NCBI GenBank assembly: GCA_050178385.1 | Contig: JBFXGD010000006.1 | Span: 1 to 48,216 of the forward strand | Length of the DNA: 48,216 nt | Reading direction: 5' to 3' | DNA from: Calditrichaceae bacterium | GTDB lineage: Bacteria > Calditrichota > Calditrichia > Calditrichales > JBFXGD01 | Shown: positions 25,883-47,365 of the stretch, piece by piece | Position numbering within the stretch: the stretch's first letter is position 1 | Layout of the letters: each line of letters begins with the position of its first letter | Program-made: the position numbers and the translations under genes | Notes under the pieces: generated by a model | Databases searched by the model: none | What the model saw: the letters and a program-made list of their open reading frames with translations, nothing else | Told to the model about the DNA's origin: nothing

Positions 25883-28800
25883 CTATATTTTTAGAGCATC
25901 ATCATCTGTTTTTGGTAAAATCGTCCGCAAATCTTTTACAAGACCGGAATATTTTTTTTCTACCTTAAATCCAAACCGGTAGAAATATTCAGGCCGCAGA
26001 AAAGCAGTTGTCACCAATTCAACATACTCATCCCGCAGGCGGTTAAAGAATTCGTTCATGATGCCTTCACTGATGCCTTTCCGGCGGTAGCGATTCGAAA
26101 CTACAATTTTTTCCATATATACTGTTTTTTCATCTATATAGCTGTAAAAAAGTCCGCCGATAATGTGTCCGCGTTCAGAAACGGATACCAGAAAACGATG
26201 CTCAGGCCGGAAATTCACCGGAAGACTTGCTTCGAGGAACAACTGATGCAGCCGCGATATTTCTTTTGGTGAAACCGGCCGCCTGACCTGAAAGGGTACT
26301 CCGTCATAATCATCCATACGCACTACCACATCCGCCATGGAGCCGCCGTCACTGAGTGTACTCACGAGAACCGCTGAATCTGTGGGTCTGAGATGCGGGT
26401 AACTCAGACGCGTAAGGAAAAAAGCTTCTTTTTCATTTAAGGTATATTCTTTCTGCACACTGGACAACAGGGAGAGCGTCTCTTCTGTAGAGATATGTTT
26501 TTTATGCTGCTTTCGCACGATATCCATCATTTCTTCCTTCAACTGTTCAGATGAATCGGCAAAAACTGTTTCCAGGAAAAACCGGGTCCGGGTTTCCGGG
26601 TATTGACGGTCGAGTTCCTGGAGCTGATATGTATCCGAGAGTTCATTGAGTGTCCTTGCCTGCGCGGTAAACGCGGCATCCCTGCTCAGGTTGAACCAGC
26701 GGTGAAATCGTTTTATCGCGAAATACAATTTTTTGGGAACAAACCCGTTCTTTCTGGTATGGTTTATAAACTCATTCAGTGAATCGGCGAGGTCGTTTGT
26801 GGGACATGGTATTTCTGAATTTTTTACTTCGCGGTAAATTTTTTTCAGCAGTTTAAGACCATTCTCTTCACCCAGCGCGTCCAGTATACCTGAAAAGACA
26901 TAAAAACAAAATGATTCTCTTTTTATAAAAGGAAAATGCTCCTCGGAAGTTTTAATAAACTGATCCGAAAAATCATTCAGCAGCTCAACGGCATTTGTCG
27001 TAGCTGCGCGCTCTGCTATGGATATAAATCTCACCCCTGTTTGATAATCATGGGATGGTACTATGATATTATTAATAGATTTATCCGTTAATGACATTTT
27101 ATAGCCGGTTCTTCTCCAAAAACTTATATGGGCGGCCATCGCGGTCCAGACAAAGAACGGCCATAAATAGTATAACCTTCTGTTCATCTCATCATTCTTC
27201 TTACGGATTCCTCTCTGCATTATTTTTCCGACGGAATCTCCCGAAGCAAATTCCTCGCTCCAAAGATCAAATTCTCTCCAGTATCCTCCAAAATCATCCA
27301 CAAGACTCAATCCGTCTTTTGTCGCCCCGGCATGGATCAACCAGTTCATTTCAGAGAGAATTTGCTCGGTGGGATAATTTTTATTTAAGTTCAAAGTGAT
27401 ATCGTATCCGCCCTGATATCTTGTTTGAACTGAAACACGGTAAACAGATTTCGCGTTTGAACTGCTCAACTGACTTATCCAGATTCCACCCGCCGGTATA
27501 TCATACAAACGTATCATGTTTCCGTTTGAGAAGAGAAAAATCGCTTCTCTCAGAATGGATGTATTCGTAATGGCATCTAACTGACGCTGTCTGTCAGAGT
27601 CGGGGATGTCCTGTTCAAAAATGATCACATCAGACCAGCGGTATTCTTCACCGGTTTCCACATCAACCGCCACAGTCTGATTGCTTCCCAGCCAGTCTCT
27701 AAAACCGTCAAGAAGTTTTTTCCTTGCTTCCGAGGCTAATTCGGCAAGCTGTGGCCAGTCATCACGAAGCTGATACTTAACAATGAGCTGCCGCACACGT
27801 TTGTAGCGCGTAGGATGAAAAATACCGTAGGTTGCCAACAGTTCAAACAAAGAAGGAAGAGCGGTTTTTTGCAGATTCACTTTTTTTGACAATCCGGTCA
27901 GTTCGCTTTTGATAGCCGCGTAAATCGCATTTAGATTCTCATCGCCTCTGCTTGCTTTCACTATGGATTCTATAAGCTCATTGTCGATAATTTCCGGATC
28001 ATCACGAATAAATATTTTTAGAAACCATTCGAAGCTCTTGCCTTTAAAAATCGGCAGACCAAGTTTGAATAATTGTCTGCGGATCCCTGCATGAATGCTA
28101 AAATTCGGCCGTGAAATTAAATCGAGCGCCAGGCTGTAAAACGGAAGATTTTCATCTTCAAAAATCATGGCAAGATATTTTACTCCGTAAACGGCCTCTT
28201 CTAAATCCCGGGACCGTAAATGAATCGCGGCAAGATTTAGCCCCATCAGTGATTTTTCTCCACCGGACAACACCTTGCCCATAAGATCCATTAAGCGGCC
28301 GTTCAGTTCAATCGGCCCGGTCGTCGAATAATATTGAACATGTTCATGCGATCCATCCAGGCGGTACCATTGAAATATGGCATCTCCCGCGAATTCAATG
28401 AGTTTTGTATTCCCCAGCCAATAAAGAGGATTGGCGAGAAATATCTGAAAATCAATATAATTCCGTTCAATTTTATAATTAAAATCTCCGATCCGAAGTA
28501 TGTCCGGATGTCCGTCAATCTGTTTTATAGTCAGCACCTGATCATATTTCGGTATGGTGAGGCCGTCGGCGGTAGTTTTGATATCACCTTTGAGACAGCC
28601 TTTCTCTCTCAGGAACCAGTTCGGGATGCGTATTTCGGTCTCTCCCCACAATAAAGATGTATAATTTTTAGTGTACATCAAATTGATGATTTCATTAAAA
28701 TTATTTTCGATCACGCGGCGCTTATAAGTGCCTTTTGGCGTTAGTTCCCCGGCTTCTGCCGTAAATGGCCGGTCAGTGATCCTGAAATCGACAATACGTT

Positions 28801-30751
28801 CATAGGGAGCGAGAAATTTATTCACAGTGACAACAACGGATGAAAAGTACGCCTGTTTTTCAGCTTCGTTCATGCTTTTTAAAGCTGTGACTACTTTCTC
28901 CTCATCGGGATATATGAGAACGGTATTATACTGCCGGTGATCGCCCACCAAAAAGACCTGTTTGATAAATTCAAAATCCCGGAAGTAGTTTTCAATTTTC
29001 TGCGGCGCGATCGTTTCGCCTTTGATGTTTTTATAAATTTCTTTTTTACGGTCAATTATCTCATAAAATTTATTCTCATCCTGTTTCATCACGTCACCCG
29101 TTGGAAACCAGCCGTCAATGAAGGCATCCTGACCGGATTTTAATCCATAATATCCCATCATCACATAAGCGCCCTTGATCAGGAGTTCTCCGTCTTCGCC
29201 AAGTTTCACATCAATTCCTGGAAGCGGCCGGCCAAGGGAGTTTGGAATATATTGTCCCGGTGGGGTCATGGTGATCCCTCCTGTGGCCTCGGTCATACCA
29301 AAACCGCTCATGATTTCAACTCCGTATTGCTGAAAGAACTGGAATACATCCGGTTCCAGATACCCTGCCGCTGAAAGTCCCCAGGCCAGCTTTCCGCCGG
29401 TTGCTTTTTTCACTGCTCTTTTAATAATCTTTTCATCATCAAATTCAATATCCGTTTTTTGAGAAATATATTCATAAAGCTGATACCATTTTTTGGGAAT
29501 GCTGATAAATACGGTGGGTTTTAGCCGTTCCATATTATCAAGCATTGTCTCCAGCGCGGGATTCTCCATAAAACCGTATTTCGCTCCCCAAAAAATGGAC
29601 CCAAGCATCTCGAGATATCTTCCGAATGTGTGGAATAGAGGCAAATAGGCCAGAAATCGATCCTCATGTCCTATTTTCGGCAATGCCATCGCGCGGCAAA
29701 ATCGTTTATAAACAAGATTTATGTTTGAAAACATTATGCCTTTAGGGTCACCTGTAGTGCCTGAAGTGTACATGATGGTCGCCAGTTCATCTATCTTTGT
29801 GTTTTTTTGCAGAGTTAAATAACTTTTTTCAGGAAAACTGACACCCTGCGCCACCATTTCCTGAAATGTCATCACCCAGTCTTCTAGGCTGCTGCCTTCC
29901 ATGAGAACAACATTTTTAAGATGCTTAAGATTTTTTCTGACCGATTTTACTTTTGCCAGCTGTTTGTCATTCCCTACAAAAATGATGGAGGCTTCCGTCT
30001 GATTGAGAATAAATTCCACATGCTGTTCTACCGAATTGGCCGGTATCATAATGTTTACGATCCCGGTTGTCAGGCAGGCCAGATCAAGAAGAGCCATATT
30101 AAGGCTGTTTTCCATCAGAAATGCTACTTTTCCGGGTTTATCACCATCCTGAAGCGCCAGTTTTGCCGCGCCAAACGCATATCCTTTGACAAGCTCATCA
30201 ATCTGATTCCATGAATAATCCGTCTCAGTAGCGCCATGGAACACCTTAAAAAGAATTTTTTTATTGTATTCCTTCACACGCTGCCTGAACATCGCGGCCA
30301 CATTAAAATTACTGATTAGAACAAGTTTATGAATTAATATTTCCCATTTTTTCTGTTCATAAATCTTGATTAAAAATTCAGACTGCCGAAAAACATCGAG
30401 ATAACTGTGAATCAATTTACAGGCTGCTGTTTGCCGGTCATGTTCTCTTTCCGAAACAGCACTTATCAGATAATCACCAAAACGGTAATAGATATCCGGG
30501 TCCAGCTTTTGCGCCAATAGCGTGATCATCTCGTTGAGTCCGGCTGATTCAAAAATTTCGTTCCAGGTATGCATGAGCTCGGGATAATGATTAAAGAGAT
30601 CCGCTTCCACTACCTGATTAACCGATTCATTTATAGATTTGGTAAAACCGCGCTTATTCTCAACTGACAAAGCTTCAACACCGGCCTGTACTGTTTCATT
30701 GATAAAATTAGCGTGGCTCATTATTTCCGCTTTTTTTTCTCTTGTAGTCAT
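25883..30751 (-). CDS. Multidomain protein: long-chain acyl-CoA synthetase-like AMP-binding domain + helical region + putative pseudokinase fold + C-terminal GNAT
   Basis: IMYTSGTTGDPKG, YLPLFHTF, GFGMTE, WFPTGD and IDRKKE (ANL family); VYMEKIVVSNRYRRKGIS and YFYRFGF (GNAT motifs); uninterrupted 1622-aa frame. Confidence 0.88.
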   Translation of the reverse strand: MTTREKKAEIMSHANFINETVQAGVEALSVENKRGFTKSINESVNQVVEADLFNHYPELMHTWNEIFESAGLNEMITLLAQKLDPDIYYRFGDYLISAVSEREHDRQTAACKLIHSYLDVFRQSEFLIKIYEQKKWEILIHKLVLISNFNVAAMFRQRVKEYNKKILFKVFHGATETDYSWNQIDELVKGYAFGAAKLALQDGDKPGKVAFLMENSLNMALLDLACLTTGIVNIMIPANSVEQHVEFILNQTEASIIFVGNDKQLAKVKSVRKNLKHLKNVVLMEGSSLEDWVMTFQEMVAQGVSFPEKSYLTLQKNTKIDELATIMYTSGTTGDPKGIMFSNINLVYKRFCRAMALPKIGHEDRFLAYLPLFHTFGRYLEMLGSIFWGAKYGFMENPALETMLDNMERLKPTVFISIPKKWYQLYEYISQKTDIEFDDEKIIKRAVKKATGGKLAWGLSAAGYLEPDVFQFFQQYGVEIMSGFGMTEATGGITMTPPGQYIPNSLGRPLPGIDVKLGEDGELLIKGAYVMMGYYGLKSGQDAFIDGWFPTGDVMKQDENKFYEIIDRKKEIYKNIKGETIAPQKIENYFRDFEFIKQVFLVGDHRQYNTVLIYPDEEKVVTALKSMNEAEKQAYFSSVVVTVNKFLAPYERIVDFRITDRPFTAEAGELTPKGTYKRRVIENNFNEIINLMYTKNYTSLLWGETEIRIPNWFLREKGCLKGDIKTTADGLTIPKYDQVLTIKQIDGHPDILRIGDFNYKIERNYIDFQIFLANPLYWLGNTKLIEFAGDAIFQWYRLDGSHEHVQYYSTTGPIELNGRLMDLMGKVLSGGEKSLMGLNLAAIHLRSRDLEEAVYGVKYLAMIFEDENLPFYSLALDLISRPNFSIHAGIRRQLFKLGLPIFKGKSFEWFLKIFIRDDPEIIDNELIESIVKASRGDENLNAIYAAIKSELTGLSKKVNLQKTALPSLFELLATYGIFHPTRYKRVRQLIVKYQLRDDWPQLAELASEARKKLLDGFRDWLGSNQTVAVDVETGEEYRWSDVIIFEQDIPDSDRQRQLDAITNTSILREAIFLFSNGNMIRLYDIPAGGIWISQLSSSNAKSVYRVSVQTRYQGGYDITLNLNKNYPTEQILSEMNWLIHAGATKDGLSLVDDFGGYWREFDLWSEEFASGDSVGKIMQRGIRKKNDEMNRRLYYLWPFFVWTAMAAHISFWRRTGYKMSLTDKSINNIIVPSHDYQTGVRFISIAERAATTNAVELLNDFSDQFIKTSEEHFPFIKRESFCFYVFSGILDALGEENGLKLLKKIYREVKNSEIPCPTNDLADSLNEFINHTRKNGFVPKKLYFAIKRFHRWFNLSRDAAFTAQARTLNELSDTYQLQELDRQYPETRTRFFLETVFADSSEQLKEEMMDIVRKQHKKHISTEETLSLLSSVQKEYTLNEKEAFFLTRLSYPHLRPTDSAVLVSTLSDGGSMADVVVRMDDYDGVPFQVRRPVSPKEISRLHQLFLEASLPVNFRPEHRFLVSVSERGHIIGGLFYSYIDEKTVYMEKIVVSNRYRRKGISEGIMNEFFNRLRDEYVELVTTAFLRPEYFYRFGFKVEKKYSGLVKDLRTILPKTDDDALKI

Positions 30752-39203: not shown

Positions 39204-40493
39204 TTACGATTCTTTTCTTTCAATTTCTCTGATTTTAAAATATATCGCGACAACCAGCAAGGTGATTACAGCGGTCGCGAATCCCAATCCCATTCTTCTT
39301 GTTTTACTTTCCTTTATCTCTGAATCCGCTAGAATAATGGCATCCCGGGATTTCTTAATTCCCTCTCCTGTTTTCAAACCTATACGGCCCGGATCAAATG
39401 TATGGACCAATGTTCTGGCTTCGATGAGATTCTGATGCGCTTCCTGAAGAAGGAAAGATATATCCACATCATCCATACCAATTTTTTGAACTTCTCGCAT
39501 TTTTGACTCAGCCGAATCATAAGCGCTTGTTGTATGGGTGAGGTGTTCATGAATTTTTTGAGCTGATATGTACCCAGCATCTCCCTTTGTATGGCAATTA
39601 ACGCAAACAGAACCGGCTCCGACACCCGCCATGGCATCCGACGTTTTTTCGATTTTATGATTTCCGTGGCATTCCTCACAGGCATGAAGCTGCAGATTTT
39701 CAAACTCCGCGGCCATTTTTGTTGAAGAAAAGTACTGCATGTTATTTACATGACATAGCCCGCAAACATGGCTGATTGAGGAAATACCCGGCGGCATGGC
39801 GCCATGATTACCATGACAGTCATTACATGCCGGCGCCCCTGTATCCTGATTTTCCAAAAGCGCTTTACCATGAACGCTGCCTGCAAATTCATCATACTGA
39901 TTTACCGGAATTTTATATTCCTTCATGTAATTTTCATCACCATGGCATTTTTTACAGGTCCCCGGAACATTCAGCGCGTAAACCCAGGAACGGGAATCAT
40001 CAACCGCAAAAATGGAATGAGCGCTGTGACAGCTTACACAATCAGCAACCTTTTTGTCACCCTTCTTTAGCTTTTGACCATGGACGCTTGTATAATATTG
40101 CGCTTCCTGTTCCGTGGGACTCTGCGGTTTATATTTTCTCATAAATTTTATTTCTGAATGACATTTTCCGCAAAAACCCGGAATGTCTCTTTTGTCAGGG
40201 ACTCCCCGATATCCGGCTTTTGTTGACATCGCCTCGTCCATATCATCTTTTGACGCATCCCCACCGTGACATCCGGAACAGGATAATCCCGATTGAAGGT
40301 GAATATCTTTCAAATTATAATCTTCCGGCAGGACTTCTGATTCAATATGACATTTAATGCACTGATCATCACTTATCCTCAGCGAAACATCCTGAGTGTA
40401 TAAATCCTGACTCATCAGAACTGTTAAAAATATCAGAAAACATAGACAATTAAGGACTCGTTTATTAAAAAAATGCATCGTCGCACTCCTCAT
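39204..40493 (-). CDS. Nonaheme cytochrome c with C-terminal membrane anchor (c subunit of the Rieske/cytochrome b complex)
   Basis: Nine CxxCH motifs (CIKCH, CSGCH, CGKCH, CVSCH, CKKCH, CNDCH, CGLCH, CEECH, CVNCH); signal peptide; C-terminal TM; ATGA overlap with cytochrome b. Confidence 0.92.
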
Positions 40494-41572
40494 ACTAAAT
40501 AACCGTATATGGTCAGGGAGATAATATAGATGATCGCCGTAACACCGATTGTCATGATTATTCTGCGGTGCTTTTTCGAATCAGATGAGAATCCAAAAAA
40601 TGGCAGCAATAACCAGATCAATGCTATGATGGCAAAAAACATGACTCCAACGATTTCCCCCTCAATAAACCAGATATGTCCCGGCAAAACCTTTAAGGTT
40701 TGAAACATAAACATAAAATACCACTCCGGTCGTATCCCTTCCGGCGCGGACGCGAAAGCATCAGCCTTCTGACCAAGTTCCCACGGGAAAAAAACAGCAA
40801 GAAATAGAAGAATATCCAGAACAACTAACCATAATAAGGCGTCTCTCAGAAAAAAATTCGGAAAGAAAGCGATGGTTTTTTTATTAGAATCAGGCAGATT
40901 CCGGTAATAATCCGGTTCATGCATACCCTGTCTTTGTACAAATAAAAGATGAATACCAAGAAAAATGGTAAAAATCGCCGGTATCAAAGCAACATGAAAA
41001 CCATAGAAGCGCAGAAGGGTCGCCCCGGTTACGTCCTCTCCGCCGCGTAAAACGATTTTTGCGGCATTGCCGATAACCGGCATGGCTCCGACGATATCTG
41101 TTCCAACTTTTGTCGCGAAAAATGCCAGTTCATTCCATGGCAGCAGATATCCGCTGAACCCAAATCCCATCACCAGAATCAGCATTATAAAACCCGTCAC
41201 CCATGTCAACTCGCGGGGCTTTTGGAAAGCGCCAGTAAAAAAGGTACTGAACATGTGAATAAATACAAAAAGAACCATCAGATTTGCCGACCAGCTGTGT
41301 ATCGATCTCACCAGCCAGCCGAAATTAACCTTTATCATTAAAAATCTCACACTCTCAAACGCGCTGTCAACGCCCGGCTGATAATATAGCAGCAGCAATA
41401 TCCCTGAAAATACCTGCACAATAAACAAAAAGAGTGATACGCCTCCCATATAGTACCAGATACTATGACGGTGAACTGGCACCCGTTTGTGTTTCATATA
41501 ATCCACAAGCGGACTCAGAGTGAATCGCTCATCCAGCCATTTAAATACACTTTTTGTATTTTTATTTCCCAT
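40490..41572 (-). CDS. petB: Cytochrome b of a Rieske/cytochrome b complex (b6-like domain fused to subunit IV)
   Basis: RSIHSWSAN...[25 protein letters not shown]...IH and IRPEWY. Confidence 0.93.
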
Positions 41573-41573
41573 A

Positions 41574-42011
41574 TCAGCCTGCCTTCGGAGTTGAAATAAC
41601 GATTTCATCCTTGACCAGATTAACGGTCAGTTCGTCCAGCGGCCTTGGAGGCGGCCCGGAAATATTTCTTCCGCGCAAATCATAATGCCCGTTATGACAG
41701 GCGCACCAGATATGTTTTAAATCAGTGCGGTACTGAACAATACAATCAAGATGGGTACATGTTGCGGCGAACGCCCGGAAATCTCCTGACTCAAGACGTA
41801 TAAGAATGACCGGCTTCCTGCCGAATTTGATGATCTTGCTGCTGTTCTTCGGAAATTCAGATATCATTCCCGCCTTTACAGAGTTGACATTCGCCTCCGA
41901 CACCTCCGGCGGTTTGAGATATGAAGTGATCGGGTAAAATATACTGCCCAGCCATGCCAGAAAACTTCCCCCAATCAGCACATTTAAAAACTTTCGTCGG
42001 TCAGTAGCCAT
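41574..42011 (-). CDS. Rieske [2Fe-2S] subunit of a Rieske/cytochrome b complex
   Basis: Tat-like DRRKFL plus [16 protein letters not shown] and GPPPRPL. Confidence 0.94.
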
Positions 42012-43800: not shown

Positions 43801-44472
43801 GAGCTTTCTCCTTGAATTTATTTGACAAATTAATACAATTTTCCCATCATAAAACAGCGATGCGGATGGCCGGGGAATCAATTCATCCCCATCTTTGATA
43901 ATTTGATGCCCCTGGAGGGAAGCCGGATTCTCAGCTGCTATTTTCTGTTATTTCTGAACAACGCTTGTCCAAAACATTTCGGAACGCAAAATTAAATAAT
44001 GTCAGTATTCTGAATATAAAAAATCAGATGCCTATGCAGTTGGAATTGGAATTTGAAAAAGTAAAGTAATAGTATTACAGGTTAGCCCTAAACAATTGAA
44101 TCAAATGATTCACAAGAGAAATTGTCTCATTAAGAATCCCCCCCATAATCATAATGTAAGCGAAAATAAACCCATCAAAATTCATAAGAATCGGTTCTTC
44201 TTACGCTTATTAAGATTTTAAACGATTCAACATTGGTTGTCAATAAAAAAATTTATCTCTGGTTTATTGCCGTATTTATACTCAATCAGGCTTCACCAAG
44301 GGTACAAATTAATGAATTCTCCGAATGATTTTCATCCAATTTAATCTGATACAATCTAATAGGTTTTAATATTGAAACTAACTAATTATATGTATAACTT
44401 TAGGCTGAATTTGAAATAAATTTCACTTTAACAATATCAGAGCACCTTATAAACCATCGAAAGGGGTAAATC

Positions 44473-45804
44473 ATGCGTTTTGTAGTATTTCTGGTGGTAT
44501 TTTTGATGACCGGGATCAGCCTGAGCCAGACGGCTCAGAATGATCAATCAAAATATGCGGGAAAATGTATGACCTGCCACAAGGAAAAAACACCCGGTCT
44601 CTACAAACAGTGGTATGAATCGGCTCACGCGCAGCACAACGTCACCTGTATCAGCTGCCACAGTGCCGAAAAAAGCGATGCGGATGCATTCATGCACGAA
44701 GGTGTCCGGATTGCAACGTTAGTGACACCTAAAGACTGCGGCCGTTGCCACGCCAAGGAAGCAAAGGAAGTTCAAAGCTCATATCACGCAACCGCCGGAG
44801 AGATTCTGGATTCTAACGACGCCTATCTCGCCCATGTTGCCGGAGGCGCACCGGTCGCCATTCAGGGATGTGAGAACTGTCATGGTGGAAAAGTAAAAAT
44901 AGACCCGGATTCCCCAAATAAGTTATCAAAGAAAAGCTGGCCTAATTCAGGTATAGGACGAATCAATCCCGATGGTTCAAAAGGATCCTGTAATGCCTGC
45001 CATACACGGCATTCTTTTTCAAAAGCGCAAGCCCGTCAACCGGAAGCCTGTTCTAAATGTCATTTAGGACCGGATCATCCGCAAAAAGAAGTATACGAAG
45101 AATCAAAACACGGAAATGCCTACTATACAAATATTCATAAAATGAATCTTGATTCTGACAAATGGGTTGTCGGAGAAGATTATTACGAAGCTCCCACCTG
45201 CGCGACCTGCCATATGACCGCCGCGCCCGGGATGAAATCCACACATGATGTGGGTGAACGCCTGAGCTGGACCCTGCGTCCGGCAGTCTCCGTCCATAAG
45301 GATAACTGGCAGCAAAAACGCAAGAATATGGGCAAGGTTTGTACATCCTGCCATGGAAACGCCTTTGTGGACGGTCATTTCTATCAATATGATGGTGTTG
45401 TAAGACTTTATAATGAAAAATTTGCCATCCCGGCGACTGAAATCATGAATCTTGTGAGAAAGAATAAACTCCTGGAAAATCCGGCAAGTTTTAGCAACAA
45501 CATTGAATGGACTTACTGGGAAATCTGGCATCATGAAGGCCGCCGCGCCCGTCACGGAGCTGCCATGATGGGTCCCGATTATACATGGTGGCACGGTATG
45601 TATGAAGTGGCCAAACATTTCTACTTCAAACTCATTCCCGAAGCCAGAGAGTTTAAAAACAAAGAGGTTGATGAGTACATCAATAATATGCTTCAAAACG
45701 ATCCAATGCATAAATGGATGCTGACCAATACCGATGAACTGAAAAAAGGCATCAAGTCCGGTAAAATTCAGGAAGTTTATGAAAAATTCTTCGAACAAAA
45801 ATAG
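44473..45804 (+). CDS. Octaheme cytochrome c of the hydroxylamine oxidoreductase (HAO) family, probably reductive type
   Basis: Signal peptide; eight CxxCH motifs; CHTRHSFS, CHLGPDHPQ, SKHG, APTCATCHM and GPDYTWWHG. Confidence 0.9.
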   Translation: MRFVVFLVVFLMTGISLSQTAQNDQSKYAGKCMTCHKEKTPGLYKQWYESAHAQHNVTCISCHSAEKSDADAFMHEGVRIATLVTPKDCGRCHAKEAKEVQSSYHATAGEILDSNDAYLAHVAGGAPVAIQGCENCHGGKVKIDPDSPNKLSKKSWPNSGIGRINPDGSKGSCNACHTRHSFSKAQARQPEACSKCHLGPDHPQKEVYEESKHGNAYYTNIHKMNLDSDKWVVGEDYYEAPTCATCHMTAAPGMKSTHDVGERLSWTLRPAVSVHKDNWQQKRKNMGKVCTSCHGNAFVDGHFYQYDGVVRLYNEKFAIPATEIMNLVRKNKLLENPASFSNNIEWTYWEIWHHEGRRARHGAAMMGPDYTWWHGMYEVAKHFYFKLIPEAREFKNKEVDEYINNMLQNDPMHKWMLTNTDELKKGIKSGKIQEVYEKFFEQK

Positions 45805-45813
45805 AGACGCAAA

Positions 45814-47316
45814 ATGTTAGCCAAATACAACGATTTTATTACAAAATTATCGATTAATATATATGGAAAGGCAGGCGTCGTCTTAACGACGTCTTCTTTT
45901 ATTACTTTCATCATTCTTGAGATTGCCCGTTTGGCGGGCGCGTTGACGAATTCGTATATCGGTCTGATCACTTATCTCTCACTTCCGACCCTGTTCGTCA
46001 TCGGTCTGGTTTTAATTCCAATCGGCTGGTATAAACAGAAGAAAGAATCCGGGAAACGCACCCGTGAACTTCTGAAGGAACGGTTTGATCCAAAGGATGT
46101 AAAGGAAAGCTTTTTCGGCTCGAAACTATTTTTGGGCATCTCTGTTCTGACACTCGCCAATGTCCTTTTCCTTGTCATCGCGAGCAGTCAGATGCTTCAT
46201 TTTATGGATGAACCGAAATTCTGCGGAACGGCTTGTCACAGTGTGATGAATCCTGAATGGGTCACGTACCAGCAGTCACCGCACGCCAGAGTTAAATGTG
46301 TGGAATGTCATGTGGGTGAGGGCGTTGACGCTCTCGTGGCCAGCAAACTAAACGGCGCCTATCAGATGATTTCCGTGACATTTGATTTACTCGAACGTCC
46401 CATTCCTACACCGGTGCATCAGCTGCGTCCGGCGCGTGAGACTTGCGAAAAGTGTCACTGGCCTGAAAAATTTTATGGCAATAAGCTTAAAACCATCGTC
46501 CACTATGAAAGAGATGAGGTATCAACTCCACTCTACACGACTCTTAACCTAAAAATTGATGACGGCAAAGGCAGAGAGCGAGCCGGCATTCACTGGCATA
46601 TTTCAAAAGAAAATGAAGTCAGATACGCCTCTGTTGACGATAAGCGCGAAGAAATGATTTGGGTGGAAGTGCGAAAACCTGACGGCAGCTATAAACGCTA
46701 TACTAATCAGCGCATTAAGAATGAAGCTGCAACTGTCGCCCCGGAAGATACCAGAATCATGGATTGCGTTGACTGTCATAACCGCGCCACCCATATTTAT
46801 GAAGATCCGGAAAATGCTCTTGATGAACGCATTTATAAGGGGCTTATCAACCGGACTCTTCCATACATAAAGAGAGAGGGTTTGAGCGCACTGACAAAGG
46901 ATTATCCTACAAAAAATGCCGGGATGGAAGCAATCGCCACTCATTTACGGGGATACTATCAATGGAATCATCCACAGCTAGCCTCTCAAAAAATGACAGA
47001 GATTGATTCCGCAATAACCGTTCTTCAGAGTATTTACGACAGAAATATTCACCAGGGAATGAATATCTCATGGGGAAGCTACCCTAATCATATCGGACAT
47101 CAGGATGGCGGTGGGTGTTTCCGGTGCCATAACTCGAACATGATCGCCGATGACGAGACAAGGATATCACAGGATTGCACAAAATGTCATTCGATTCTTT
47201 CAGATGGTGAAAACGAACCATTTAAATACTTGAAACCGGTCGATGAAAAAGACCGGGATTCTCAGATGCACCAGTATCTACAAGAAGAATTTTTAAATTC
47301 ATTTCAAAACAATTAG
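45814..47316 (+). CDS. NapC/NirT-family membrane-bound multiheme cytochrome c (6 hemes)
   Basis: Three N-terminal TMs; FCGTACHSVM (CX3CH), CVECH, CEKCH, CVDCH, CFRCH and CTKCH; starts 9 nt after the HAO-family stop. Confidence 0.9.
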   Translation: MLAKYNDFITKLSINIYGKAGVVLTTSSFITFIILEIARLAGALTNSYIGLITYLSLPTLFVIGLVLIPIGWYKQKKESGKRTRELLKERFDPKDVKESFFGSKLFLGISVLTLANVLFLVIASSQMLHFMDEPKFCGTACHSVMNPEWVTYQQSPHARVKCVECHVGEGVDALVASKLNGAYQMISVTFDLLERPIPTPVHQLRPARETCEKCHWPEKFYGNKLKTIVHYERDEVSTPLYTTLNLKIDDGKGRERAGIHWHISKENEVRYASVDDKREEMIWVEVRKPDGSYKRYTNQRIKNEAATVAPEDTRIMDCVDCHNRATHIYEDPENALDERIYKGLINRTLPYIKREGLSALTKDYPTKNAGMEAIATHLRGYYQWNHPQLASQKMTEIDSAITVLQSIYDRNIHQGMNISWGSYPNHIGHQDGGGCFRCHNSNMIADDETRISQDCTKCHSILSDGENEPFKYLKPVDEKDRDSQMHQYLQEEFLNSFQNN

Positions 47317-47324
47317 AAAATTTT

Positions 47325-47365
47325 AATAAAAATGGCGCCGGTTTGAAGGCGCCATTTTTATTTTT
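47325..47365 (+). terminator. Intrinsic terminator after the HAO/NapC pair
   Basis: AATAAAAATGGCGCC-N8-GGCGCCATTTTTATT. Confidence 0.85.

Follow-up and report, generated by a model that had tools for sequence, protein, structure and literature searches.

An octaheme HAO-family protein without the cross-link tyrosine and its ImcH-family partner, a candidate menaquinol-dependent nitrogen-oxide reductase in Calditrichota

What feeds electrons to an octaheme cytochrome of the HAO family that lacks the cross-link tyrosine, and what does it reduce? The question is raised by two adjacent genes, ORF A and ORF B (open reading frames A and B, with products A and B), in the 48,216-nucleotide stretch of Calditrichaceae bacterium DNA analyzed here (the window, G000:C6:1-48216, where G000 is the 3.9-Mb source genome, 94% complete). 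On balance, we think it rather probable that this Hao-ImcH pair constitutes a dedicated two-subunit, membrane-anchored menaquinol:nitrite/NO/hydroxylamine reductase that would resemble NrfHA in function and often serve detoxification.

In terms of heme content, A carries eight CxxCH motifs (at C32, C59, C89, C133, C173, C193, C243, and C290) that use all 16 of its cysteines, and it begins with a hydrophobic signal-like stretch. The segment CHLGPDH, with D201-H202, follows motif 6, and GPDYTWWHG occupies residues 367–375; the eight motifs, the Asp-His pair, and the late-helix segment had all been pointed out in an initial sequence-only reading, and the sequence bears them out. A matches PF13447 (E 4e-27), and its best solved relative is IhOCC (4qo5, E 1.2e-43), ahead of Nitrosomonas europaea HAO (NeHAO), Kustc0458, KsHAO, and HDH; a profile built from 50 relatives of A, picked from 270 proteins for length and spread, finds IhOCC with E 3e-101. 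In a Foldseek search with the model of A, HAO, HDH, and IhOCC fill all top 10 rows, and the model aligns with the NeHAO structure over 189 residues (VIA Z 11.0, rmsd 3.8; model region 175–219 has pLDDT < 50). Among named homologues the nearest, at 96% identity, comes from Calditrichaceae. With eight CxxCH motifs in HAO order, conserved distal ligands, and three long C-terminal helices, A is an octaheme HAO-family protein, and the search for a CxxCK motif or a PF02335 match in A, which would place it with NrfA or ONR, returned neither.

The HAO active site is heme 4 (PMC8840924), and NeHAO His459, whose place is taken by M365 in A, is an axial heme ligand (PMC2628731, Fig. S1 legend). M365 is invariant in 120 close relatives of A. 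So are H52, H75, H105, H180, H213, and H258, which we take to be heme ligands, and we presume that the Asp-His pair after NeHAO motif 6 has a role in the distal pocket. A possible distal anion-binding residue of A is R269, the equivalent of which is Gln in the Nap-linked Calditrichota Hao.

The position of NeHAO Tyr467 is occupied by Trp in either of two alignments. The HMMER profile alignment of A with NeHAO is gapless in the late helix (I344 = L438, M365 = H459, Y370 = G464, W373 = Y467), and a MAFFT alignment with the Tyr-bearing Ruegeria Hao, which as a control shows Tyr in this column, is shifted by one residue and places W372 at the site. The structural alignment, for which only the end points are available, pairs model residue 398 with NeHAO 492, an offset of 94 that matches 373 = 467. 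Both tryptophans are invariant (120 of 120 rows). The sequence-only reading had left open whether W372/W373 or Y370 is the equivalent of Tyr467; Y370 falls on NeHAO G464 or on the adjacent Trp/Phe and was rejected as the cross-link residue, and a cross-link Tyr, which an oxidative HAO or HDH should have, was not found in A in either register. Trp is also present at this site in the epsilon-Hao proteins. HAOs that lack the Tyr reduce nitrite, NO, and hydroxylamine and show no oxidation, such that its absence is a mark of the reductive enzymes (PMC8042395). A, with an HAO core that lacks this residue, would therefore be of the reductive type, as had been proposed.

B has three hydrophobic segments (residues ~20–41, 47–73, and 100–130), a CX3CH motif, CGTACH, at 137–142 that is followed by M145, and five CxxCH motifs, with 12 of 12 cysteines in motifs. 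The three transmembrane (TM) helices, the Met after the first motif, and the six hemes in 500 residues noted earlier are all present, but B is an ImcH-type protein, a family already described, and not a novel NapC variant. Homologues of ImcH have three TM helices, one CX3CH, and five to nine CX2CH motifs (PMC6295460), and B, with three N-terminal TM helices (also in its model), an adjacent CX3CH, and five CX2CH, is an ImcH-family member; 121 of 121 B homologues have one CX3CH and five CX2CH. It matches PF03264 and is 38% identical over residues 7–469 (E 8e-108) to a 507-residue heptaheme protein from a Geobacter sp. metagenome-assembled genome, an orthologue used in place of GSU3259 itself. 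That protein also has the Met after the first motif, which is therefore not distinctive, and in an ImcH model heme 1 is ligated by His/Gln (bioRxiv 2023.05.03.539133). The E/H/K/Q/Y residues of the Geobacter sp. orthologue lie at +2 relative to the ImcH numbering of the same source. Foldseek gave no match for B at E <= 0.001; its top row is NrfH (E 0.07, prob 0.98).

The quinol-site acid, Lys, and Gln are conserved in 121 of 121 B homologues, and the ImcH Y188 site is Leu in B (Tyr in 53 of 121 and Phe in 5 of 121). These site residues suggest that B would oxidize menaquinol. B has exactly five invariant non-motif histidines, for hemes 2–6. The seventh, solvent-exposed heme of the Geobacter-type ImcH is absent from B, and the helix found in its place is well kept (L489, E492, and F493 at least 90% conserved); standalone ImcH paralogues align with B only to residues ~465–474.

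The two genes keep company within one clade. Among the best 80 of 593 loci found, 44 belong to the close clade of A; 29 of these have B immediately downstream, 8 lack it, and 7 are cut too short to be judged (29 of 37 assessable loci). B is absent from all 30 assessable distant loci (6 more are too short). Further Calditrichota loci of the close clade have B in 11 of 11 cases, two of which duplicate the records L015 and L076, and in addition in G038, where the gene is split over two contigs and which was counted as a carrier. In a tree of 103 rows, from which two duplicates, four other rows, and fragments below 370 residues had been left out, A of the window falls in a 51-row clade (SH-aLRT 99) with 38 paired, 5 truncated, and 8 unpaired rows; 7 of the 8 unpaired rows form one branch, mainly of Desulfobacterota. 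Eight loci with close A relatives (L034, L036, L038, L039, L044, L045, L048, and L031) have neither an ImcH-like neighbor nor any further multiheme gene within 6 kb, and in the cultured Desulfofustis glycolicus DSM 9705, the source of L045, a search with B as the query found no homologue.

Gene content was compared in a panel of 80 genomes, comprising 39 carriers of the pair and 41 controls (Calditrichota at least 90% complete, from 86). Carriers belong to Calditrichota, Zixibacteria, Ignavibacteria, Acidobacteriota, Marinimicrobia, and others. Strong B matches (E < 1e-150) are confined to the 39 carriers, and most Calditrichota have a separate, more distant ImcH of 34–41% identity to B (a heptaheme in the same-genus genome G043, a fragment ending contig C272 in the source genome); B is thus a dedicated paralogue. 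Two extra B-clade copies of 52–54% identity over residues 4–441 occur in G104 (C137 and C85).

A predicted complex of A(24–443) and B(98–500) scored 0.62 against 0.00 for the best control, with at least 95% of contacts shared between runs and a partner pLDDT of at least 81; of 157 solved complexes 116 attain the mark for such scores, as do 2 of 215 mismatches, and these counts hold only roughly for runs with self-made alignments. The heme-1 region of A meets the heme-6 region and the C-terminal helix of B in the modeled interface, and A heme 1 facing B heme 6 is the geometry that an electron wire needs. Residues G30, M33, T34, and K37 of A are kept in 38, 36, 38, and 38 of 38 paired proteins, as compared with 0, 0, 1, and 2 of 8 close unpaired relatives. 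Searches of the PDB turned up no solved Hao-ImcH complex; the model and the partner-dependent conservation support binding of A to B.

We propose that menaquinol would be oxidized at heme 1 of B on the periplasmic side, by analogy with ImcH, and that electrons would pass along B hemes 1–6 and, as in the predicted model, from heme 6 to heme 1 of A. In A, presumably a homotrimer like its family members, they would reach the un-cross-linked catalytic heme 4, where nitrite, NO, or hydroxylamine may be reduced, most likely to ammonium, as the in vitro activities of Tyr-less HAOs suggest. In most carriers the role would probably be nitrite/NO scavenging or detoxification with recycling of the quinol pool, rather than the completion of nitrate respiration; in the source genome the pair could also use nitrite from Nar. 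Genes for NO or reactive oxygen species (ROS) stress (Hcp, Crp/Fnr, FrdX-like, NapH-like, hemerythrin-DUF438, DUF1858, and Fur/PerR, counted among the 32 largest neighbor clusters only) lie within 6 kb in 7 of 29 paired, 0 of 8 unpaired, and 0 of 36 distant loci, with hcp directly upstream of the pair in L018 and L047. Some loci lie among genes for peroxiredoxin, superoxide reductase, rubrerythrin, ferritin, and flavodiiron protein, and an outer-membrane porin gene adjoins 9 of the 29.

The source genome encodes NarG, NarH/J/I, NarK, a clade II NosZ with NosD, OTR, a Psr/Phs-like enzyme, and qNor (E 8e-136 to 3ayf), and it returned no match for NrfA (PF02335), NapA (searched by TIGR01706 at E <= 1e-150 and then by a 765-residue NapM-type enzyme), NirS, NirK, or Hcp (PF03063). 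The proposed independence of the pair from NrfA therefore agrees with this genome, in which neither nrfA nor napA was found. Across the panel, NrfA is present in 0 of 39 carriers and 10 of 41 controls, any nitrate reductase in 11 and 24 (G112 counted though under the cut-off), qNor (E < 1e-90) in 11 and 6, NosZ in 13 and 19, and Hcp in 6 (0 of 13 Calditrichota carriers) and 3; nine well-assembled carriers at least 90% complete have a nitrate reductase in 4 cases and a NOR in 5. Absences among carriers carry little weight, because completeness is unknown for 26 of them and below 90% for 4. Two members of one genus fit the notion that Hao-family enzymes stand in for NrfA: G041 has nap and a distant Hao but no NrfA, and G040 has nap and nrfHA but no Hao match. 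NirK was found in 0 of 80 genomes, including 54 Calditrichota, though 25 of these have NosZ and many a NOR, and the panel search for NirS, run without a positive control, gave no match in carriers or controls.

Several observations in the source genome and its relatives stand apart. The end of G000:C80 together with C32:1000-15600, and G043:C3:58828-78000 (L149, L150), carry a diheme cytochrome, narGHJI, narK, genes like those of alternative complex III (ACIII), an Rrf2 gene, and qNor, and a nitrite reductase gene is not among the genes of this cluster. In G000:C40 (L093:88-9871), clade II nosZ and nosD follow genes for an FeS-flavoprotein, a Rieske-like protein, cytochrome b, and a pentaheme cytochrome. 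The OTR of the source genome is encoded at G000:C45:2790-4174 (L094) and exceeds the TIGR04315 cut-off, and in the 54 Calditrichota genomes Hao, OTR, and NrfA were the only nitrite-reductase candidates found (the NirS search not being validated). Large multiheme clusters on G000:C4, C7, C14, and C84 (L089, L090, L091, L098), with up to 22 CxxCH and one nonaheme with a type IX secretion (T9SS)-type C-terminal domain, suggest a capacity for extracellular electron transfer.

A number of points weigh against the menaquinol-dependent reductase proposed here. The complex model contains no hemes, assumes a 1:1 assembly, and was computed from our own alignments, and the 8 close unpaired relatives represent about two lineages. 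The mutual exclusion with NrfA is in part kinship, as 7 of the 10 NrfA genomes belong to one family, and G007 has NrfA together with a contig-cut Nap-linked Hao. A nitrate reductase is found in only 11 of 39 carriers and lies beside the pair in none of them, and the window locus has no Fnr, Crp, or NsrR box above chance and no stress genes nearby. OTR was found in 25 of 39 carriers, including the source genome and 13 of 13 Calditrichota carriers, versus 15 of 41 controls; since it is reported to reduce nitrite, the absence of NrfA does not force a nitrite role on the pair.

The inventory of the source genome, with Nar, NarK, qNor, and clade II NosZ/NosD but no match for NirK, NirS, NrfA, or Hcp, can also be rationalized with a pair that forms NO from nitrite. 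The pair would then be a third type of NO-forming nitrite reductase outside anammox, similar to the anammox HAOr (Kustc0458), closing the nitrite-to-NO gap for denitrification without NirS or NirK. HAOr yields NO with a mild donor (PMC8042395), menaquinol delivered through ImcH would be mild as well (menadiol reduced ~2 of 7 ImcH hemes; bioRxiv 2023.05.03.539133), and the same-genus G043 clusters nar, ACIII-like genes, an Rrf2 regulator, and qNor. However, a NOR match is found in just 13 of 39 carriers (11 qNor, 2 cNor-like) and is missing from 4 of the 9 carriers that are at least 90% complete, where NO production would be harmful, and NosZ is rarer in carriers than in controls; these counts do not support NO formation as a clade-wide rule. 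The lack of NirK from all 80 genomes makes the gap phylum-wide rather than specific to the pair, the NirS search had no positive control, and NO could come from OTR or a side activity of NarG. We regard this product as unlikely. Reduction of nitrite only as far as hydroxylamine, with completion by Hcp as proposed for Nautilia profundicola (the reverse hydroxylamine:ubiquinone redox module, reverse-HURM), follows the same logic of a Tyr-less Hao with a NapC-family donor (PMC2628731, PMC3701875) and agrees with the hcp genes immediately upstream in L018 and L047; with Hcp in only 6 carriers, and neither in the source genome nor in any Calditrichota carrier, it has very little to recommend it here.

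A substrate other than a nitrogen oxide (sulfite or another sulfur oxyanion, peroxide, or oxygen), or a role for A in ImcH-type extracellular electron transfer, as relay or sink, would fit with the lack of a nitrate reductase in most carriers, the oxidative-stress proteins near some loci, the distal Arg269, in which A differs from characterized HAOs, the adjacent porins, and the multiheme-rich genome. The Asp-His pair and all HAO-core ligand positions are invariant, however, all characterized relatives reduce nitrogen oxides (PMC9250108), and electron export could be left to a separate ImcH of full length; we consider such roles improbable. The fold and heme order, together with the link of HAO in ammonia-oxidizing bacteria to the NapC-family cM552 (PMC2628731), would also accommodate the opposite direction, with electrons from hydroxylamine entering the quinone pool through B. 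The cross-link Tyr that the Ruegeria Hao control displays is missing from A in both registers, and A scores 73 against a cut-off of 900 with the HDH model, which makes an oxidative enzyme highly implausible.

Comparison with known systems places the proposed quinol-linked reductase among several partial relatives. IhOCC of Ignicoccus hospitalis shares with A the order of its eight CxxCH motifs, the Met at the His459 site, and the lack of the cross-link Tyr, whereas it is archaeal, has large insertions, and carries Phe where A has Trp at the Tyr site, and Asp-Val where A has Asp-His behind motif 6. The epsilon-Hao of Campylobacterota, sequences of which were not part of the tree or the comparison, and the Nap-linked Hao of Caldithrix abyssi (Cabys_2556; PMC5317091), from the same phylum as the source organism, are likewise Tyr-less octahemes and proposed NrfA substitutes; the Hao of L145, a Calditrichota locus with Cabys_2556-like gene order, is 34% identical to A and has Trp in the W373 column. 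Unlike A, which has its own ImcH partner, no adjacent nitrate reductase, and no NapA in its genome, the Nap-linked proteins form a separate clade, have in 13 of 15 genomes a napA of the NapM type no farther than ~7 kb away, and are fed by Rieske/cytochrome b or NapGH. HAOr of Kuenenia stuttgartiensis (Kustc0458, 6h5l) lacks the Tyr as well, has Trp-Trp in that late helix, and reduces nitrite (PMC8042395), but its identity to A is ~21%, its partner is a soluble diheme cytochrome, and its NO product is used in anammox. ImcH of Geobacter sulfurreducens (GSU3259; PMC4251993, PMC6295460, bioRxiv 2023.05.03.539133) resembles B in its three TM helices, first CX3CH motif, NapC/NirT region, ~500 residues, and quinol-site acid, Lys, and Gln; B differs in having six hemes, a conserved helix in place of heme 7, and a gene beside that of a catalytic octaheme. 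By contrast, imcH forms a monocistronic unit, and its product passes electrons to Ppc cytochromes in extracellular electron transfer. In NrfHA (2j7a) and the reverse-HURM of Nautilia, as in the pair, a NapC-family quinol oxidase feeds a periplasmic multiheme nitrogen-oxide reductase; NrfA, however, is a pentaheme with a CxxCK motif, which A lacks, NrfH is a one-helix tetraheme, and in N. profundicola the cM552 gene is unlinked (loci 0536 and 1248) and Hcp is needed (PMC2628731).

The features of the locus are collected in Table 1. ORF B starts 9 bp after the stop of ORF A on the same strand, and the DUF2339 gene upstream of ORF A is divergent and 591 bp away, so the two-gene unit stands. Its proposed terminator corresponds to the hairpin downstream; the scan gave 6 terminator-like sites versus 3.8 ± 2.2 in shuffles, a count not above chance, and the call is supported because the hairpin sits 9 bp past the ORF B stop.

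Table 1. Features of the Hao-ImcH locus, in window positions
Feature	Positions	Strand	Basis
ORF A, exported octaheme HAO-family cytochrome c, putative reductive type, 443 aa	44473..45804	+	PF13447, IhOCC, Foldseek
ORF B, ImcH-family membrane hexaheme, putative quinol oxidase, 500 aa	45814..47316	+	PF03264, Geobacter orthologue
Shine-Dalgarno-like AAGGGG 5' of ORF A	44461..44466	+	sequence; kept in same-genus G043
Heme-1 patch of A, residues 26–39, predicted docking face for B	44548..44589	+	complex model; conservation
Heme-4 motif CENCH of A, catalytic heme by motif order in NeHAO	44869..44883	+	aligns with fourth NeHAO motif
D201-H202 of A, aligned with Asp-His after NeHAO motif 6	45073..45078	+	invariant in 120/120 close relatives
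R269 of A, aligned with NeHAO Tyr334 (mature numbering)	45277..45279	+	invariant in 120-row alignment
M365 of A, replacing NeHAO His459	45565..45567	+	profile alignment; Met also in IhOCC
W372-W373 of A, at the Tyr467 cross-link position	45586..45591	+	two alignments; structural end points
Quinol-site region of B (D132, CX3CH 137–142, M145, K178, Q184)	46207..46365	+	match ImcH E127, H137, K173, Q179
C-terminal helix of B, 481–498, where ImcH has heme 7; predicted docking helix	47254..47307	+	model, alignment
Bidirectional intrinsic-terminator-like hairpin, 15 pairs, T tails on both strands	47325..47362	.	terminator scan

Consensus patterns for Fnr, Crp, and NsrR boxes matched 3, 1, and 0 of 39 upstream regions, with shuffle means of 1.3, 0.6, and 0.9 (maximum 4), and show no enrichment. 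A 16-bp palindrome at 44097–44112 was tried as an operator; as an exact match it is unique in the genome, but G043 does not keep it and none of the other 38 upstream regions has it, and the candidate was dropped. A strong sigma-70-like site (11/12) at 44215–44243 on the minus strand, inside a block conserved in G043, probably drives the divergent DUF2339 gene. Positions 39204–42011 (minus strand), 2.5 kb from ORF A and on the opposite strand, hold an operon for a Rieske protein, cytochrome b, and a membrane-anchored nonaheme, a possible second electron source for A. Close homologues of this module (58–70%) lie directly after a nap-hao operon in G041 and ~2.4 kb from the standalone imcH of G025. 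In G043 the module shows synteny with the pair, and in G025 and G037 it is on a separate contig. Farther away, positions 25883–30751 (minus strand) encode a 1622-residue protein with an AMP-binding domain, a C-terminal GNAT domain, and ~800 residues between them without a Pfam match.

Substitution of NrfA by a Tyr-less Hao has been published for Nautilia, Caldithrix abyssi (PMC5317091), and Deferribacter, and ImcH in Calditrichota is likewise known (PMC6295460). We found no description of the Hao-ImcH pair among the titles and abstract openings returned from the openly accessible literature, nor in passages of PMC6896113 and PMC11492766; Table S3 of PMC6295460, on imcH neighbors, may list it. 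What this analysis adds is the docking model with partner-dependent conservation, the swap of heme 7 for a helix, and the genome-level counts.

Surveys by marker genes count nrfA, nirK, and nirS and would overlook the nitrite/NO sink that a Tyr-less Hao paired with a dedicated quinol oxidase would constitute. Proteins of the A type risk annotation as 'hydroxylamine dehydrogenase', and an imcH match alone is no marker of extracellular electron transfer. If the pair did form NO, the source organism, with Nar, qNor, and clade II NosZ, would denitrify fully, and 'truncated' denitrifier genomes of this kind would be complete ones. What donates electrons to reductive HAOs in the cell has been a matter of guesswork, and a two-gene unit with an interface predicted at the level of residues makes the question of the product (NO, hydroxylamine, or ammonium) testable.

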